This document shows, in pieces, positions 32,647-47,532 of a DNA stretch of 64,000 bases; the stretch's first letter is position 1, and the number at the start of each line of letters is the position of its first letter. This DNA is from Nostoc sp. GTDB lineage: Bacteria > Cyanobacteriota > Cyanobacteriia > Cyanobacteriales > Nostocaceae. The translations under genes were made by a program, and so were the position numbers. The stretch lies in the NCBI RefSeq assembly GCF_036917615.1, contig NZ_JBALCZ010000040.1:80292-144291 (forward strand), in the 5' to 3' direction. Below the pieces are notes generated by a model. The model had not been told where the DNA came from and made no database searches. It saw nothing but the letters and a program-made list of their open reading frames with translations.

Positions 32647-32912
32647 GAGACGCTACGCGTAGCTTGCTTCCCCGGAGGGGTACAAGTCTCTTAACCGCAA
32701 GGGCGTACTGGCTCCCCTTTCAAAGAGGGGAGTTTGTATTACTAATTTGTAAGGGAGAAAGGGTGAAAGCTTTATCAGCAGTGGAATCGTGCAAGCGATC
32801 GCCCAATGTGGTATCTACAGAACTGATGAGGGTTAAAAATAGGGCGTGGAGATGTCTACCAGTAAGAAACTGTGGCGGAACAGGCGCTTGAGGTAGCAAA
32901 TTCAACACTAAA

Positions 32913-33533
32913 CTATGAGGCATACTTTCTCTTTTTGGTTGTAGACTGAGTGCTTCTTGACTCTACAGTGAACTCAGGTATTTCCCGGAGTTCAGCTTCA
33001 CTCAAACTATACTGCTCACAAACTAAACTTAAACGATTTCCCGGAGTTTTAACAGCGTTAACCGAATGGGTTAAATCACCTTGAAAATAAAGTAAAGTAT
33101 TGATTTGGGGCTTAATTTGCCCAAGTTGGCGTTTATGCGATCGCAATATCAGTTCTCCCCCTTCCATATCCGCAGGTACTCGCACATAGAGGACACTGAC
33201 AACCGCGGGCGGTTCAATGGTTTTGGAGTAGGAACGCAAGGAGCGATCGATATGCGGATCGACACGGGAGCCTTCCTTTAGCTGTAAAGGATTGAGGTAA
33301 AAAGCATTACAATTCGGCTGGAGAGCCAAATCAAGGTAAGGCTTGAAGTAGGGAAACTGCTGCTCTACCTTTGGTAATCCAGAACGCTGAAATACTACGG
33401 AAAATCCTTTGGTGGCGACAAAATCGCGGTTGAGGTTGTTGATAGCAAAGTAAGGACAAGCTTGGATTTCTCCCCACAAGTTATTTAGATAGTCGCTGGG
33501 GAAGGCGTTGAGTTGTTGTTGATAGTGTTTCAC
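32913..33533 (-). CDS. 2OG-Fe(II) oxygenase superfamily protein (prolyl-4-hydroxylase-like)
   Basis: 206 aa with HxD (DPHIDRS), distal His (DLTHSV) and RxS (NRLSLV). Confidence 0.65.
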   Translation of the reverse strand: MKHYQQQLNAFPSDYLNNLWGEIQACPYFAINNLNRDFVATKGFSVVFQRSGLPKVEQQFPYFKPYLDLALQPNCNAFYLNPLQLKEGSRVDPHIDRSLRSYSKTIEPPAVVSVLYVRVPADMEGGELILRSHKRQLGQIKPQINTLLYFQGDLTHSVNAVKTPGNRLSLVCEQYSLSEAELREIPEFTVESRSTQSTTKKRKYAS

Positions 33534-33971: not shown

Positions 33972-34720
33972 CCTTTTTTGGCTGACAATGCCAATCTCCC
34001 AACCTTGAACTTTCCTTCAACTCTTTCCCTCTCCGACTCGGAGAGGGACGTTTTACGTAGTAAAACCTCTTAGAGGTTTTTTATTTGGAAGTCCCTTAAC
34101 ATACTTGACAAAAGTACATTCCCATAAGATGCACTCATGTAACCGTTGCCTGCGATCGCCTATAGTCATCTACAATACGTAGGTAACACAAATGAGGTGA
34201 TAACAAGGTTTCCAGACATCAATTCGGAAAATTAAAGAAAAAAATAATTACTAATTGCCTAAAAATTCCGGTTTTTTTGGCTTTGTGATGATAAATAAAA
34301 ATAATAGCCTTGAATGTCATGCTTGCTAACGCGAAGGATTACTGAAATTCTTCGCTGCTTTCAGGATGACTACTGAACATTAAACAACATCTGCCGCCAA
34401 TCAATTTTTTTGCTGGAGATGCTTTTTTGCCACAAAAAAAGGAGATACAGCTACATCAAAAGGCTCTACCACAAAACTTGCTCTAGATGTATCTAAGTAA
34501 CTATGCTAATAAAGTGTAAAGATGTCAGGGTATCTAAGAGGAAATTTTAAAGCAATTGTAAAGGACTTGGTGCCATTTTGGCAGGTTTTTATCGGAAAGA
34601 TGGGATATTAGTAGATTGTACAAATCTTTATTGTTATTCACTATCTACCGACAACTGCTAAGTACAAGCAAATACCGACACAGATAAGTTGAAGTAATTT
34701 AATGAAGTAGGAAATAATAC

Positions 34721-35980
34721 ATGGTATTATCACTGTCTTCTCATAACGTTATCCAGTATCTGCAAGACGCGGGGCTGTGTAGCTCAGAAGATGACGCATC
34801 AGATAAATCTGAGTTGCCAGGAAGTAGTAAGAACAATTTCGATTTACTAGTGACTCTAGCAGATAATCGGAAACTGCTCATTAAACAAGAACGTAACGTT
34901 AAAAACAATGACGCCGCGCCCCATGAATTGTTTCAGGAGTGGCTGTTTCACCAGTTGCTCCAGCAGTTTCCAGTTCTTGGCAATATTTCCGCGATGCCTA
35001 CGGCGGTAGACTACGCACCATTGGTAGTGCATTTTGACGAAGAAAATTCTATCCTTGTCCGCACCTACTTAAGTGAATATCGTGAGCTTGCGACATTCTA
35101 CCACAACAATGATATTTTTCCACAAGAAATTGCCACTGCGATCGGCACTACTTTGGCGGGACTACATCGCGCAACCTACAACCGCCGAGAATATAGGGAT
35201 TTTATGGCAACTGCTCCCCAAGGAGAGTTTCGCTATGGCTTTTACAATCCAGCCCAAGGGGTAGAGTCAATTGGGCCGGAGATTTTTGGAACTGTTCCCA
35301 CGGATGCGCTGAAATTCTATCTACTCTACCAGCAGTCGGAGAGTTTGGAATCAGCGATCGCTGATTTGGCATATAACTGGAATCCTTGCTGCTTGACTCA
35401 CAACGACCTGAAATTGAACAACATTTTGGTTCATTCCAGGTGGGAGAAACTAGATAATTGCTTAGTACGACTAATTGATTGGGAAGCTTGTGCTTGGGGA
35501 GATCCAGCTTTTGATTTAGGAACTTTATTAGCAAGCTATTTAGGAATTTGGCTCAAGAGTCTGGTAGTAGACCCCACTATTGAGTTAGAAGAATCTCTAC
35601 ATCTGGCGTTGACACCGTTAGAGAGTTTACAACCTTCAATCATTGCCCTAATTCGGGCTTATCTAAATGCTTTCCCTATGATTTTAGAATACCGCAGTGA
35701 CTTTATTTTGCGCGTTATCCAGTTTGCGGGGCTGGCACTGATTCATCAAATTCAGGAGATGATTACCTGGCAGAAATCCTTTAATAATGCTGACATCTGT
35801 ATGCTGCAAGTGGCTAAAAGTTTACTCACTATGCCGCAGCAAGCTGTACTGACTATTTTCGGGATATCAGAGTCAGAAATTCTGAATCCTGTGGCAAAAA
35901 TCCATAAACTTCCTCAGCCTGTAAAAGAGCCGCAGCTACTTCGGATTTATTACGAAAAAACTCGGCTTCGTGGTTGTTAA
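34721..35980 (+). CDS. APH/choline-kinase-fold phosphotransferase (protein-kinase-like)
   Basis: 419 aa with catalytic loop LTHNDLKLNNILV, metal-binding LIDWE, GDPAFDL and candidate ATP lysine LLIKQ. Confidence 0.8.
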   Translation: MVLSLSSHNVIQYLQDAGLCSSEDDASDKSELPGSSKNNFDLLVTLADNRKLLIKQERNVKNNDAAPHELFQEWLFHQLLQQFPVLGNISAMPTAVDYAPLVVHFDEENSILVRTYLSEYRELATFYHNNDIFPQEIATAIGTTLAGLHRATYNRREYRDFMATAPQGEFRYGFYNPAQGVESIGPEIFGTVPTDALKFYLLYQQSESLESAIADLAYNWNPCCLTHNDLKLNNILVHSRWEKLDNCLVRLIDWEACAWGDPAFDLGTLLASYLGIWLKSLVVDPTIELEESLHLALTPLESLQPSIIALIRAYLNAFPMILEYRSDFILRVIQFAGLALIHQIQEMITWQKSFNNADICMLQVAKSLLTMPQQAVLTIFGISESEILNPVAKIHKLPQPVKEPQLLRIYYEKTRLRGC

Positions 35981-35989
35981 TGGCAGGGA

Positions 35990-36043
35990 GCAGAACAATT
36001 TAAAAGCCAGATAACTTCAATTAGACATTTTGAATTGTTCTGC
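35990..36043 (+). other. Hairpin with a perfect 11-bp stem in the spacer between the kinase and HopA1-like genes
   Basis: gcagaacaatt - 32 nt - aattgttctgc. Confidence 0.6.
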
Positions 36044-36131
36044 GTATTCTCCTATCATAATTTTTCGATAATTTTTCCCCCAGAGGGGTTTCATAATTTT
36101 AGATTTTCCAGTTTGAGTTCTAAATGGATTA

Positions 36132-37220
36132 ATGCTAAATTCCTCTATCAATCAACCGCTAACTTCTCTATTCGACATTGCTAAAAATATCCAGATTGAG
36201 TCAAATTTTTGTATTTACCATCCCAATTATCAACCCTTTGCTCTGCCGACTAAAGTAGCCGACAGATTTCAGCAAAACTCGGCAGATTTACAACATAAAT
36301 ATCTCACGCTCTTACTGCGAAACTTTCTTTATGGGATCTATTATAATGGCTCTCTACAAAGTACTTTAGCAGTCAATACTGATAGTACTAATCACCCGCC
36401 AAAGCAGAATTTAGCAGATAATTCCACCTTAGAAATTGATTGGAACTTTTACGAACATCTGCACGCCAGTAATCACGGCATAGGTTACTTTGACCCTCGA
36501 TGGCAGGTGTTGCGGAAAGAACCTGATGGCACTATGGCGGTAACTAAAGGCGGTTTAACACTTTATGTTGAGCCAGACTGCCATCTAGAATCCAGTAAGA
36601 AATCTACCAAAGTGGGTGATATGGTAGCAATCTGGATGCCCAAAAATCGACTGCAAAATGGCTGTTACTTGGCAGTTAGTAATGTCGGACAGGAACGCCA
36701 GAGCAACCCCGATGCTGATTTAGGAGCAGGGCGAATTTACTTTAACTTTAGGGCATCTGGTGCGATCGCTCTCATGGAAAGCCTGACACTACAATTGAAT
36801 GCAGCCTCGATTCCCTTTAGCTTTCAGGTTCTTCACAATCCCTGTGCATACGGACGCTATGATTCGGGGCTACTCTACTTTGAACTCCCCAACTATCCAG
36901 CAATTCGCACAATCCTTCAGGCTGTTTATCCAGAAAATCAATCGCATTTCCAACCCGAAATTCCCTTATTTACAAAATTTTTAGCACCAGGGTTAGGTTT
37001 AGCCGAGGAACCAACCCAAAAATTTGCAGCACAAGAAAGTTTTGGGATGAACCGTTGCCAAATTGTCGCTAATGCTTTATTAGAAGCTTGGCAAAAAGGT
37101 AAAAATGCGATGGAGGAACGGATGAGGGTTATTGACCAACACTTTACACGCCATACAATCGACTTGCAGCGTCCCTATCTTAATCCCAATTCTAAGGATA
37201 TATATTACCCGCTAAATTGA
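36132..37220 (+). CDS. HopA1-effector-like family protein (candidate lyase partner of the kinase)
   Basis: 362 aa. My recollection of the family pattern: GRIYFNF...ALMESL...IPFSFQVLHNPCAYGRYDSGLLYF...FTKFLAPGLGLAEEP...SFGMNRCQIVA. Not verified by HMM. Confidence 0.5.
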   Translation: MLNSSINQPLTSLFDIAKNIQIESNFCIYHPNYQPFALPTKVADRFQQNSADLQHKYLTLLLRNFLYGIYYNGSLQSTLAVNTDSTNHPPKQNLADNSTLEIDWNFYEHLHASNHGIGYFDPRWQVLRKEPDGTMAVTKGGLTLYVEPDCHLESSKKSTKVGDMVAIWMPKNRLQNGCYLAVSNVGQERQSNPDADLGAGRIYFNFRASGAIALMESLTLQLNAASIPFSFQVLHNPCAYGRYDSGLLYFELPNYPAIRTILQAVYPENQSHFQPEIPLFTKFLAPGLGLAEEPTQKFAAQESFGMNRCQIVANALLEAWQKGKNAMEERMRVIDQHFTRHTIDLQRPYLNPNSKDIYYPLN

Positions 37221-37823
37221 TTGACGGGGATTGAATAATTTTTAAATTATCGGATATCTTGCATTAATAATTGCGATCGCCAATCTGATTTTTAGTTTGT
37301 TCCTCAGAACGATACCTTCTCTACGAGACGCTACGCATAGCTTGCTTCTCCGTAGAGTACGGTGAGCGTTCCGTAGGAAAGCTCACCGTTCGCTAACGCA
37401 AAAGTTTTCGGTCTACTGACTATCGCTGTGGCAACATTTAATGGTATTAGTCAACGTGGATGAGGGTGATCGCTTTCTTCACCTCAGTTCTGGGGGAAGG
37501 TAGTTAATTGCATAGCAAATCTTAACCGCACTTATAGAATAAAAATAGTGCGACCGTTTGTAGATAGACTTATAGCCTGGAGAAAAAAGGCTGTATTGCC
37601 TGCTCCTACAACTTCCCCTTGGTTTTTTCGACTATCTATTTGCCGCAGTTCGACCGAGATAAATAGGTCGGCGTAAATAATTATTGTTGGGATAAGGCAG
37701 GGGGCAGGGAGCAGGGAGCAGGGTGAGAAAGAGTTTGAGCCTTATTTACTTTTCTTCACACAGTTTGGTTTGATTGCACCGATTTACTTAAACAAACCGA
37801 TCATATCATTAGGAGTTGAAGCA

Positions 37824-38153
37824 ATGGTTACAACCGTCAACACAGATATAACTGTTGAGCGTGTTCAAGCAGCTGTAGAAGCCATTCTGAATGTATTGGG
37901 TGAACCAGCTACAGAGCAACAAAAACAAGCTATAGAAGCCTTCCACAGTGGTGATGGTGCCACAATCAAACGTCTCTCACTGTTAAACCTTACAGATAAC
38001 TATCTAAAGTGTTTAGGCTACCTAGTATCAGCCCCCAAACTAACGCCTAACACAGATACAATTTTGGCTGAGAGTGCTCGTAGTGCTGCCGAACACGCTA
38101 AAGATGTTGTTCTGGCTACACTTGGCACTGAGTTAGGGAATGCTTTTATTTGA
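37824..38153 (+). CDS. Hypothetical 109-aa, probably helical protein
   Basis: ATG preceded by aggag 8 nt upstream. The TTG start in the ORF track at 37770 is less likely. Confidence 0.5.
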   Translation: MVTTVNTDITVERVQAAVEAILNVLGEPATEQQKQAIEAFHSGDGATIKRLSLLNLTDNYLKCLGYLVSAPKLTPNTDTILAESARSAAEHAKDVVLATLGTELGNAFI

Positions 38154-38290
38154 TCAGTAAAGGAGCAAGCTGTTTATGGCATTCAGCCCAGATGTGAACG
38201 AAAATAGAAATAGGGACTGAAAAAGCTTGATTTTTCGTAGCTTAGAAAGTTTTTCTTGGTTAGGTTTTTTTAAAAACTTAGCAGCCCCAT

Positions 38291-40657: not shown

Positions 40658-40843
40658 ATGAGTACGAGAGCCAACACCTGCCCATGTTGCGGTGGTTCCC
40701 TGCTGCGTCATGCCCGTCATGGTGAACTATATTGGTTTTGCCTGTCGTGCCGACAAGAAGTACCGCTATTAACTGTTACTCGCTTGCCTAATGTGGAAAC
40801 CCGGAACACCGGAGTGGTTCCTCAGCCAGTGGTGAATTCCTAG
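40658..40843 (+). CDS. Small zinc-ribbon protein (61 aa)
   Basis: CPCC...CLSC cysteine pairs, with aaggag upstream of the ATG. Confidence 0.55.
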   Translation: MSTRANTCPCCGGSLLRHARHGELYWFCLSCRQEVPLLTVTRLPNVETRNTGVVPQPVVNS

Positions 40844-45577: not shown

Positions 45578-46165
45578 TCACCTACAGACCAAATTGGGCT
45601 GACTACCGTACAACCGAAACAACGGCTGGTGACTGGCTTTTACATTGCTATGCCGCAGATTGAAATCTGTTGGTTGGAGTCGATAATCGGCAAAAAGCCG
45701 CAGCAGTTCCGCTTCGTGTTCGACGGCAAACACCAAGAATAGATCTGGTCGGCGATCGCCAGTCAGAACATTGATCGCCTGATGCACTGGCTCAGGGATG
45801 AAGAACGGGGGATCAACGACAATCACATCAAATTCCCGGTTAATCGGCTGTGGCTCCCGCAAATCATAAGGGAGGAACTCCGCGAATTCGGCAAACTTCG
45901 GGTCGATGTCTAGAAGCGTCACCCGGCGCCCTCGTCGAGACCATTCGGCTGCAAGCCGAGGCGTACAAAGGCAACAGGGATTCGCATATACATCCAGCGC
46001 ACACACGAGCGCGGAAGCAGTTTGTTGTGTGAAGAAAATCTGGCTGAGTGTGAAGTCAGGAGGCACGAACTGGTCGATGGGGTCTACCCCAGACTCAAAC
46101 CACGGCTGACCAGGACCGATCGCCATCCGCTCCGTCAAAACCCGCTTCAGTTGATCTTTGTCCAT
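45578..46165 (-). CDS. Small SAM-dependent methyltransferase with DPPF motif (N6AMT2/EEF1AKMT1-like)
   Basis: 195 aa with VTLLDID and FDVIVVDPPFF. The gene is visibly more GC-rich than its neighbours. Confidence 0.55.
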   Translation of the reverse strand: MDKDQLKRVLTERMAIGPGQPWFESGVDPIDQFVPPDFTLSQIFFTQQTASALVCALDVYANPCCLCTPRLAAEWSRRGRRVTLLDIDPKFAEFAEFLPYDLREPQPINREFDVIVVDPPFFIPEPVHQAINVLTGDRRPDLFLVFAVEHEAELLRLFADYRLQPTDFNLRHSNVKASHQPLFRLYGSQPNLVCR

Positions 46166-46215
46166 ATGTAAACCTCTTTATCCTGAAATTATTAGTCGGT
46201 ACTGACAAAAAACGC

Positions 46216-47532
46216 TTAAAAAATAAAAATAATTTCTAGTTTTAATTCTTTATTCTGAAGAGTAATCTGAATTTGCCTGATGAATTCTCGAAAGTAAAAT
46301 CGTCGCTCTGTTTCTGACAAATCTAACCAAAATTGTGGTATGGAAACAGCTTGAGCAACAGAACGCAAGTTAACTGGAGGAAGAGTCGCTAACTTTGCTT
46401 CGAGTGCAGAAATTTCTGTGCGGAGTTTATAAGCCCTTAACTTTGCTGTTTCAACATCTAAAATTCCAGTTTCAATCAAAGCGGGTAACTGAGCAAGTAT
46501 TTCTTGCTGACGAGCGATCGCTTGTCCTAAACTATTCTTGACTGCATCCAATTGGGGAAAATTCATCCCCGCTACAGCTAAGGGTAAGTCACGGCAAACC
46601 GTTTCAATTGTATGTTCTAAAACCTCTTGATAGGGAATAGCCTTACACTTGGGGCTTTGAGGACAGCTAGTAGAACGTAAATAAAGATACTCCTTATCTT
46701 GATTGCGTTGGGTGACACGAGTAACTGTCATGTGTGATTGACACTCAGCACAGACTACCAACCCAGCTAAAGAACGTGGCGCACTAGCAGTTCGGGATGG
46801 TAAACGGCTGTTACGGCGTAAAAGTCGGTCAACTTGGGCTGCTTCTTCTTTAGAAATTATCGGAATATGGGTATTGGAGATAATTTCACCATTTTGGTAA
46901 GCTGTATTGCCGCGATAAACTGGATTAGTTAGCCAGCGTCTTCCTGTGGTGACAGAGATTTTTTTGGCGTATTTTTTCGCCAAGTAACGAACTGAACCCC
47001 GCAGGGAACCATAGAGTAAAAAGTGTTCAAAAAAATCTTTGACTACTGGTGAAGTACTGCGGTCAATGGTATATTTTCCCTTACCTCTGCGATAGCCGTA
47101 GGGAACTTTGCCGGGTGGCGGTGCAACATCGAGACGATTACGGGCGTGTCCTTCACGGATGCGACGACTACGTTGCTGACGTTGGATTGCGTGTAGCAAA
47201 TTCAGCAAGTCAGCGCCCAGAGGGTAATTTTCGGAAGTGTAGGGCTGTTCAGTGGCGATGATCGCTACTCCCATTGCTTCGAGTTGATGCAAGCGATCGC
47301 TAATTTCCTCTACAGTATCCCCTAATTCTTCCAACCGACGAATCAGGAGATAATCTGCTCCTTCAGTTTGGCAATCGGTAAATAATTGTTGTAATTGCGT
47401 TCGCGTAGCGTGTCCAAAGGACTCTGGCTTACCCAAATCTTCATAAACCTGATCCACCTCCCATCCCCAATCAGCTTGATCGGGAGAAGATTCTAATAGC
47501 GGATTGGTATAAGAGTAGGCAATGATTTTCAT
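46216..47532 (-). CDS. Large serine-recombinase-family protein with non-canonical catalytic positions
   Basis: 438 aa. Contains a resolvase-like N-domain, a recombinase domain (PYGYRRGKGKYTID...WLTNPVYRGN), a zinc ribbon (CAECQSH...CPQSPKC) and a C-terminal coiled coil. Confidence 0.75.
   Translation of the reverse strand: MKIIAYSYTNPLLESSPDQADWGWEVDQVYEDLGKPESFGHATRTQLQQLFTDCQTEGADYLLIRRLEELGDTVEEISDRLHQLEAMGVAIIATEQPYTSENYPLGADLLNLLHAIQRQQRSRRIREGHARNRLDVAPPPGKVPYGYRRGKGKYTIDRSTSPVVKDFFEHFLLYGSLRGSVRYLAKKYAKKISVTTGRRWLTNPVYRGNTAYQNGEIISNTHIPIISKEEAAQVDRLLRRNSRLPSRTASAPRSLAGLVVCAECQSHMTVTRVTQRNQDKEYLYLRSTSCPQSPKCKAIPYQEVLEHTIETVCRDLPLAVAGMNFPQLDAVKNSLGQAIARQQEILAQLPALIETGILDVETAKLRAYKLRTEISALEAKLATLPPVNLRSVAQAVSIPQFWLDLSETERRFYFREFIRQIQITLQNKELKLEIIFIF

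Follow-up and report, generated by a model that had tools for sequence, protein, structure and literature searches.

A kinase–HopA1 gene pair of heterocyst-forming cyanobacteria related to the class V lanthipeptide dehydratases

What can be the task of two adjacent genes that look like the two halves of a peptide dehydratase, in a region where no peptide to be dehydrated is encoded? The question is raised by a locus of Nostoc sp. within a stretch of 64,000 nucleotides, hereafter the window (NCBI RefSeq assembly GCF_036917615.1, contig NZ_JBALCZ010000040.1, positions 80,292 to 144,291 of the forward strand; coordinates below are those of the window), in which a gene for an APH-fold kinase is followed, after 151 nt, by a gene for a HopA1-like protein. 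The original prediction had taken the two products for a split, phospho-dependent Ser/Thr dehydratase without a visible substrate gene; our comparisons suggest that this designation is right by homology, is doubtful as chemistry, and may be wrong for the whole clade to which the pair belongs. Both open reading frames (ORFs) were found where they had been placed, as follows:

34721–35980, forward strand: APH-fold kinase of the LanK/LxmK type, 419 aa (PF01636, E 6.4e-14; LxmK model, E 2.4e-19)
36132–37220, forward strand: HopA1-domain protein, homologue of LanY/LxmY, 362 aa (PF17914, E 8.8e-61; Foldseek match to 9dk3_B)

Homology to the class V LanK/LanY proteins

The class V LanK/LanY group comprises LxmK-LxmY (PDB 9DK1-3), CaoK-CaoY and the thioamitide pairs TvaC/TvaD and TsaC/TsaD. 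LxmK/LxmY and CaoK/CaoY are heterodimers in which the kinase phosphorylates Ser/Thr residues of the precursor and the HopA1-like subunit eliminates the phosphate (PMC9486802; PMC12141560); CaoK/CaoY has been reconstituted in vitro (PMC9486802), and the structure of LxmKY is available as 9DK1 (PMC12141560). Like these systems, the window has side-by-side genes for an APH-fold kinase and a HopA1-fold partner, and the link to class V dehydration drawn by the original prediction agrees with the literature (PMC9486802, PMC12141560).

The kinase assignment, first made from the motifs HNDLKLNN and IDWE, is borne out by the PF01636 match and by a complete catalytic set, namely K55, H227, D229, N234 and D253 (HNDLKLNN starts at H227, and IDWE holds D253). 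Its best NCBIfam match is LxmK (NF038156; E 2.4e-19, 69.6 bits, profile positions 75–344 of 347), which falls far short of the curated equivalog cutoff of 315 bits, whereas the models of small-molecule kinases (viomycin, capreomycin, macrolide, methylthioribose (MTR) and thiamine) all gave at most 23.5 bits against cutoffs of 275–650. The remaining Pfam matches are generic (APH, choline-kinase and EcKL). A search of PDB sequences with the kinase profile did not reach LxmK, and the closest solved relatives by sequence were small-molecule kinases (E 2.7e-05 to 6.6e-03). The AlphaFold (AF2) model of the kinase, built from a shallow alignment, had a mean predicted local distance difference test score (pLDDT) of 43 and was unusable.

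For the 362-aa protein, membership in the HopA1 family, which had been proposed from its appearance, is confirmed by the PF17914 match (E 8.8e-61) over the whole profile (positions 1–170 of 170), and a profile of the family matches LxmY (9dk1_B, E 1.6e-11). An AF2 model built from 35 family members (pLDDT 88.4; predicted template modelling score, pTM, 0.86) has as its top Foldseek matches the three LxmY chains of LxmKY, with E-values from 6e-17 to 5e-16 and template modelling (TM) scores of 0.66–0.81; on 9dk3_B it superposes with TM 0.71/0.81 (E 6.2e-17), while identity to LxmY is only about 20%. The Pseudomonas syringae effector HopA1 (PDB 4RSX/4RSW) shares the Pfam domain and a distant likeness of fold, ranking as a distant second in the fold search (TM 0.40, E 2e-05), but its profile-to-sequence match is not significant (E 0.45) and the window protein is no secreted effector. 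For cyanobacteria, the label 'T3SS effector HopA1 family protein' (T3SS, type III secretion system) used in databases is misleading; lyase chemistry has been inferred for the superfamily that includes HopA1 and the OspF/SpvC phosphothreonine lyases (PMC9486802).

Family history and active-site residues

A scan of one genome per species with a nine-sequence alignment returned 463 relatives, from which the best 80 loci, all of Nostocales, were used together with two loci of Cylindrospermum stagnale, giving a set of 82. The locus scan gave only close Nostocales relatives, and the distribution beyond this order rests on protein searches. The kinase gene lies directly upstream of the HopA1 gene in 81/82 loci, the sole exception being cut by a contig end, and the co-conservation on which the original prediction hinged is thus present in other cyanobacteria. 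The flanks are not kept beyond the genus: in Nostoc the pair is followed by exonuclease, glycosyltransferase and dehydrogenase genes, and in other genera a Tmemb_14 gene lies upstream and phylloquinone (men) genes lie downstream. A conserved third gene, which the original prediction had proposed to look for, did not emerge when the ORFs of 27 diverse loci, down to a length of 25 aa, were all clustered, no third family travelling with the pair. Across genera, from Nostoc to Fischerella and Scytonema, the HopA1 homologues are 67–93% identical, and both genes are under purifying selection, with ratios of nonsynonymous to synonymous substitution (dN/dS) of 0.07–0.19 overall, 0.07–0.16 for the HopA1 gene and 0.11–0.19 for the kinase gene. 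Among the best 120 homologues, the clade of the window pair, which we call the orphan clade, is confined to heterocyst-forming taxa. On this comparative evidence the pair appears to be a vertically inherited core gene pair of heterocyst-forming cyanobacteria, found Nostocales-wide, unlike biosynthetic clusters of sporadic occurrence.

An exhaustive, profile-free protein search yielded 2,551 representative relatives, among them two types of fusion, kinase-HopA1 (720–830 aa) and HopA1-LanC (714–792 aa), which are 33–45% identical to the HopA1 region of the window. Because such fusions exist, the family can be tied to kinase-dependent peptide dehydration; although uncharacterised, they show that its members work with a kinase and feed a lanthionine cyclase. 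The window proteins, in contrast, are separate polypeptides with no cyclase nearby.

The nearest non-orthologous clade, whose HopA1 proteins are 57% identical to that of the window, occurs in Microcoleus, Coleofasciculus, Chroococcidiopsis and Phormidium and also in Nostocales. Three of its loci are complete peptide gene clusters, of the type named 'Family 1A' by Eyles et al. 2021 and described as exclusive to cyanobacteria (PMC8153245):

L083, 7344–12963: Family 1A-type cluster
L084, 8714–14146: Family 1A-type cluster
L085, 7853–12940: Family 1A-type cluster

These clusters carry two or three precursors with double-glycine leaders (MATINISDLRPTGSDLFSDSEGYM...GG; for example MATINISDLRPTGSDLFSDSEGYMDDLVDSDIGAIKGG...), followed by the kinase, the HopA1 protein, an aldo-keto reductase whose gene always overlaps the HopA1 stop codon, and then a PpiC rotamase; a cNMP/C39 ABC exporter (cNMP, cyclic nucleoside monophosphate; ABC, ATP-binding cassette), an HlyD-type protein and a regulator are also encoded. 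The placement of the reductase suggests dehydration followed by reduction, and the product is uncharacterised. The window pair has the same kinase-then-HopA1 order, its kinase is 48–52% identical to the kinases of double-glycine peptide clusters, with a very similar C-lobe, and it differs from the clusters in having neither precursors nor the reductase, rotamase, exporter and HlyD-type protein. In a neighbour-joining tree, the orphan clade is monophyletic and is the sister of the cluster clade. Both copies coexist in Nostoc sp. LPT, Nostoc sp. DedQUE08 and Mastigocladopsis repens; in the Eyles dataset Cylindrospermum stagnale has a cluster copy besides the orphan Cylst_5787, and Family 1A clusters are often found elsewhere in heterocystous genomes, including that of PCC 7120 (PMC8153245). 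The sister position in the tree and the co-occurring cluster copies argue that the window pair is an orphaned paralogue of the cyanobacterial peptide gene cluster and not a fragment of one.

In CaoY, elimination was shown by mutagenesis to need K219 and R187, K219A being inactive, and to receive a contribution from R229; in SpvC, the alpha-proton is removed by the counterparts of K219 (K136) and of Y236 (PMC9486802). Mapped onto the window protein through the LxmY alignment (YHAKVL...PRRD...LYL), these residues are distributed as follows, the orphan clade being represented by 120 Nostocales protein clusters:

CaoY R187: R201 in the window protein; R in 116/120 of the orphan clade and in 12/12 LanC fusions
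CaoY K219: Q232 in the window protein; Q in 105, E in 12, H in 2 and Y in 1 of the orphan clade, never K; K in LxmY, in 12/12 LanC fusions, in all 14 sampled cluster-clade proteins and in 71/104 other stand-alone relatives
CaoY R229: R242 in the window protein; R in 119/120 of the orphan clade and in 12/12 LanC fusions
CaoY Y236: Y249 in the window protein; Y in 80/120 of the orphan clade and in 12/12 LanC fusions

The window protein thus keeps three of the CaoY residues, R201, R242 and Y249, and differs from LxmY in having Gln in place of the catalytic Lys, which the Family 1A clusters retain; the LanC fusions keep the full R/K/R/Y set. In addition, K282, E292, R308 and D244 are invariant in the orphan clade, as is Y179, the equivalent of the active-site guard Tyr of LxmY, which has Glu at the position of K282.

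The kinase has also changed, in part of the clade. K55 and N234 are invariant among the orthologues, and the Mg-binding D253 is replaced by Asn in 13/81 loci (L001, L002, L004, L005, L007, L011, L012, L013, L027, L033, L034, L036 and L070) and in 24/120 clusters, while the catalytic-loop D229 is Asn in 4/81 loci (L006, L012, L013 and L024) and Asn, Ala or Gly in a few clusters. Altogether, a catalytic Asp is lost in about 20–25% of the kinase lineages, leaving the kinase intact in about 75%. The altered kinases belong to several Nostoc lineages, many of them from Peltigera lichen metagenome bins, and to Cylindrospermum; their genes are intact, selection is not relaxed in them, and the combinations of residues seen suggest that the losses were several independent events.

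Control region and surroundings of the pair

Upstream of the kinase gene, the following features are conserved:

34258–34305, forward strand: conserved non-coding element 1, made of AAAAATTCCGGT, a 17-nt spacer and an invariant GATAAATAAAAATAAT
34540–34625, forward strand: conserved non-coding element 2, made of a palindrome, TGCCATTTTGGCA (34571–34583), followed by GGTTTT and GATATTAGTAGA
34708–34712, forward strand: ribosome-binding site of the kinase gene, TAGGA; GTAGGA and its spacing to the ATG are invariant in the aligned loci

Element 1 contains TCCGGT at 34267–34272, and both TCCGG and the AT-rich block GATAAATAAAAATAAT are invariant across Nostocales genera. All related loci with upstream sequence have it once, in the same orientation, at 276–1051 nt before the kinase ATG; it has no Rfam match and no reading frame conserved across genera, and it is absent from the cluster loci L083–L085. 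The consensus of promoters of the sigma-HetZ/DIF1 type is TCCGGA-N16-17-TGNA-N7-9-T (PMC13342950), with TCCGGA at -35, TGNA as the -10 element and a start of transcription 7–9 nt further on, and positions 34267–34302 read TCCGGT-N16-TGAT-N9-T, with two mismatches. Although this is the only match in the window to the relaxed form TCCGGW-N16-17-TGNW-N7-9-T, 1.68 such matches are expected by chance, and therefore the evidence for element 1 is its conservation and not the match to the consensus. DIF1 promoters are heterocyst-specific and often have long leaders, patS being transcribed from -580 (PMC7377430). Element 1 has the look of a promoter, with a resemblance to the DIF1 (sigma-HetZ) type that is specific to heterocysts, a sigma-70-like reading, TTGGCT-17-AATAAT, being a possible alternative.

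Element 2 lies about 140 nt before the kinase ATG, and its palindrome does not vary among 23 aligned loci of diverse genera. The window has one copy of the palindrome (0.07 expected), which is carried by 68 loci, all of the orphan clade, as a single copy in 67/68 and twice in L064; it is absent from L083–L085. A terminator scan flags the element for a 5-bp stem with a T-run, and it may bind a regulator or may form a small leader or attenuator hairpin with a U-run. Across genera, the conservation of both elements exceeds that of the coding sequence, and their absence from the paralogous clusters suggests that the orphan operon is regulated in its own way. The possibility of a precursor hidden in the 650-nt region upstream of the kinase was considered and rejected, since no reading frame there is conserved across genera and the conserved blocks are non-coding only. 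No Rfam family was matched in the interval 33.5–38.5 kb.

Two further features lie between and behind the two genes:

35990–36043, forward strand: intergenic hairpin of 16 pairs, including one G-U, with a 22-nt loop, no T-run and a folding free energy (dG) of -18.4 kcal/mol
37221–38290, no strand: strain-specific insertion between the HopA1 and exonuclease III-like genes, not part of the system

The perfect 11-bp stem reported for the hairpin is real and extends to 16 pairs, but the structure is lineage-specific and not kept in orthologous loci, and was rejected as a conserved regulatory feature. The kinase-HopA1 spacer measures 35–524 nt in the orthologues, and only 11–25 of about 80 loci share any similarity in it; six distinct hairpins of the window have a perfect stem of 11 bp or more, where shuffled sequence gives about one. 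The interval 37221–38290 is regarded as an insertion because only about 200 bp separate the HopA1 gene from the exonuclease gene behind it in most Nostoc genomes. Inside it lies the 109-aa ORF (37824–38153) that had been pointed out as the only small gene nearby. This ORF does exist, and was rejected as substrate or partner: it is absent from 82/82 related loci, and its homologues (43–63% identity) are hypothetical proteins carried, in unrelated contexts, by plasmids of Nostoc, Leptolyngbya, Anabaena and Fischerella, where they have ParA, Uma2 or restriction genes as neighbours. It matched no Pfam, NCBIfam or PHROG family and is, as far as its relatives indicate, an accessory gene. A G-rich repeat, CAGGGGGCAGGGAGCAGGGAGCAGGG, lies just upstream of it, at about 37698–37724.

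The genes within about 15 kb of the pair are ordinary and unrelated to it. Upstream are an aminotransferase, a Rieske protein, xanthine-dehydrogenase-type subunits, a WD40 protein, a truncated Cas6, a 2-oxoglutarate (2OG)-Fe(II) oxygenase and a DUF433 protein, and downstream an exonuclease III-like protein, a glycosyltransferase, a zinc dehydrogenase, a PMT-type glycosyltransferase and a serine recombinase. In agreement with the original prediction, which had seen no cyclase, precursor or transporter, neither LanC, LanD, a peptidase/C39 exporter nor a precursor peptide is encoded within about 15 kb on either side, which sets the pair apart from class V LanK/LanY with their LanA precursor, LanD decarboxylase, LanX cyclase and exporter. 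A search for Family 1A precursors also came out negative: tblastn with five of these peptides gave nothing above noise, the best E-value being 0.073 for the window and 0.89 for the 82 loci, and no aldo-keto reductase, PpiC rotamase or C39 ABC exporter is linked to the pair in the window or in the orphan loci.

Three observations concern the neighbourhood itself. A 67-aa ORF at 32720–32923 (reverse strand) has a match to the Cas6 N-terminal domain (PF19308, E 2.2e-31) that is limited to its first 63 positions, and is a truncated remnant beside the 2OG-Fe(II) oxygenase gene; few of the related Nostoc loci have these two genes, and no search for a CRISPR (clustered regularly interspaced short palindromic repeats) array was made nearby. 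At 40658–40843 (forward strand), a 61-aa Cys-rich zinc-ribbon ORF (CPCC...C..C) is kept near the pair in 43 Nostoc loci, and short ORFs of this kind, which contain Cys, Ser and Thr, could be mistaken for lanthipeptide precursors by automated searches. The large serine recombinase at 45578–47532 (reverse strand) adjoins a gene for an N6-adenine methyltransferase-like protein in a stretch of low GC content (44–46 kb, GC 0.365) and is probably part of a mobile element.

Possible functions of the orphan pair

Because of the homology, the fusions and the sister cluster, the two proteins very likely make up a complex of the LanK/LanY kind, with a peptide or protein as the partner that it recognises. 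The lyase Lys is universally lost and the kinase Asp recurrently lost under purifying selection, from which we infer that the orphan clade no longer performs the canonical phosphorylation followed by Lys-driven beta-elimination, and that the function being conserved is not the textbook one. The homology, the fold and the pairing that stood behind the 'split dehydratase' are therefore upheld, whereas its chemistry is called into question by the missing equivalent of CaoY K219 and by the decay of the kinase Asp in many orthologues; the orphan pair has probably taken on a different job.

The reading that we favour, and to which we would give about an even chance of being right, is that of a trans-acting binding and kinase complex whose elimination step has been lost or is non-canonical. 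The two genes would form a stand-alone operon for a kinase-HopA1 heterodimer, and would have arisen when the kinase/lyase pair of a Family 1A-type double-glycine peptide cluster was duplicated. After the duplication, the orphan copy would have lost the precursors, reductase, rotamase and exporter and become a vertically inherited core pair of the heterocyst formers, with a conserved control region of its own and with any substrate encoded elsewhere. Its conserved function would most likely be the binding of a Ser/Thr-bearing peptide or protein, which in strains with an intact kinase, including that of the window, would also be phosphorylated; elimination would be absent, or would depend on a non-canonical base such as the invariant K282.

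Several points weigh against this reading. The retention of R201, R242, D244 and Y249 in the window protein, with Y179 invariant, argues for an active site that still functions, in which another base could replace the missing Lys, given the invariant K282, E292 and R308. About 30% of the stand-alone cyanobacterial relatives also lack the Lys, which may thus be non-essential in this branch; the window kinase has every catalytic residue, and in other strains some activity may survive the replacement of the Mg-binding Asp by Asn. These same features can be taken further, to a working two-subunit Ser/Thr dehydratase acting in trans on a double-glycine precursor (Family 1A type) or on another peptide or protein encoded elsewhere in the genome, as the original prediction would have it, and using a non-canonical base, for example K282 or, where residue 232 is E, this Glu. 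Such an enzyme, which we consider possible though doubtful, would account for the strong conservation of the HopA1 core and for the intact kinase of the window strain and of about 75% of lineages; it could find its substrates in the Family 1A clusters that are often present elsewhere in the same genomes, and the kinase C-lobe, which binds the leader in CaoK and LxmK (PMC9486802, PMC12141560), closely resembles its counterpart in the cluster paralogues. However, the Lys that the sister clade and every LanC fusion retain is missing from 120/120 clusters, the kinase Asp has been lost repeatedly without relaxed selection, and the cluster copies have their own kinase/lyase pair, so that a second one in trans would be unneeded.

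If both activities were gone, the pair would be fully non-catalytic, serving as a peptide-binding scaffold, a chaperone, an immunity factor or a regulator, and could act in developing heterocysts if element 1 is a sigma-HetZ (DIF1) promoter. This would fit the loss of the lyase Lys everywhere and of D229 and/or D253 in many lineages at dN/dS values still of 0.07–0.19, as well as the restriction of the clade, among the best 120 homologues, to heterocyst-forming taxa and the invariant TCCGG-containing element that is specific to the orphan operon. We nevertheless hold it to be unlikely, as a pure scaffold would not be expected to keep the complete and invariant catalytic set that the kinase has here and in most lineages, and the promoter assignment of element 1 is motif resemblance only. 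Quite unlikely, too, is an exaptation of the pair into a developmental or housekeeping role, in which it would be transcribed by sigma-HetZ from a DIF1-type promoter in differentiating heterocysts and would bind or phosphorylate, and no longer dehydrate, a peptide or protein such as a signalling or exported peptide; were it true, a pseudo-dehydratase derived from a ribosomally produced, post-translationally modified peptide (RiPP) pathway would belong to the core gene set of heterocystous cyanobacteria. Finally, a small-molecule (antibiotic or metabolite) phosphotransferase whose HopA1-like partner processes the phosphorylated compound, as the generic Pfam matches and the closest solved relatives of the kinase might suggest, is very improbable, for the peptide kinase LxmK is by far the best match (69.6 bits against at most 23.5), the partner is a LanY homologue by fold, and the relatives of the pair are found in peptide clusters, as the sister clade, or fused to LanC.

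The pairing of HopA1 proteins with phosphotransferases and its abundance in cyanobacteria have already been published (PMC8153245; PMC9486802). Four points appear not to have been described before, namely the order-wide orphan clade, its origin from Family 1A, the change of Lys to Gln or Glu together with the decay of the kinase Asp, and the private upstream elements; full-text literature searches returned no paper linking HopA1 proteins to heterocysts and none on the orphan clade. HopA1/phosphotransferase pairs are a handle for mining genomes for new peptide natural products, and this handle also picks up order-wide pairs that do not belong to clusters and lack the residue required for lyase activity in CaoY, so that caution is advised against annotating orphan loci as class V lanthipeptide clusters or 'T3SS effectors'. 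For the biology of these bacteria, the pair offers a natural experiment in the recruitment of a natural-product enzyme pair into core physiology, with the ancestral cluster and the orphan copy coexisting in the same genomes, a single active-site change from K to Q that can be reverted, and conserved control elements that are open to testing. If element 1 is a true heterocyst promoter, an unstudied conserved gene pair would join the heterocyst programme.

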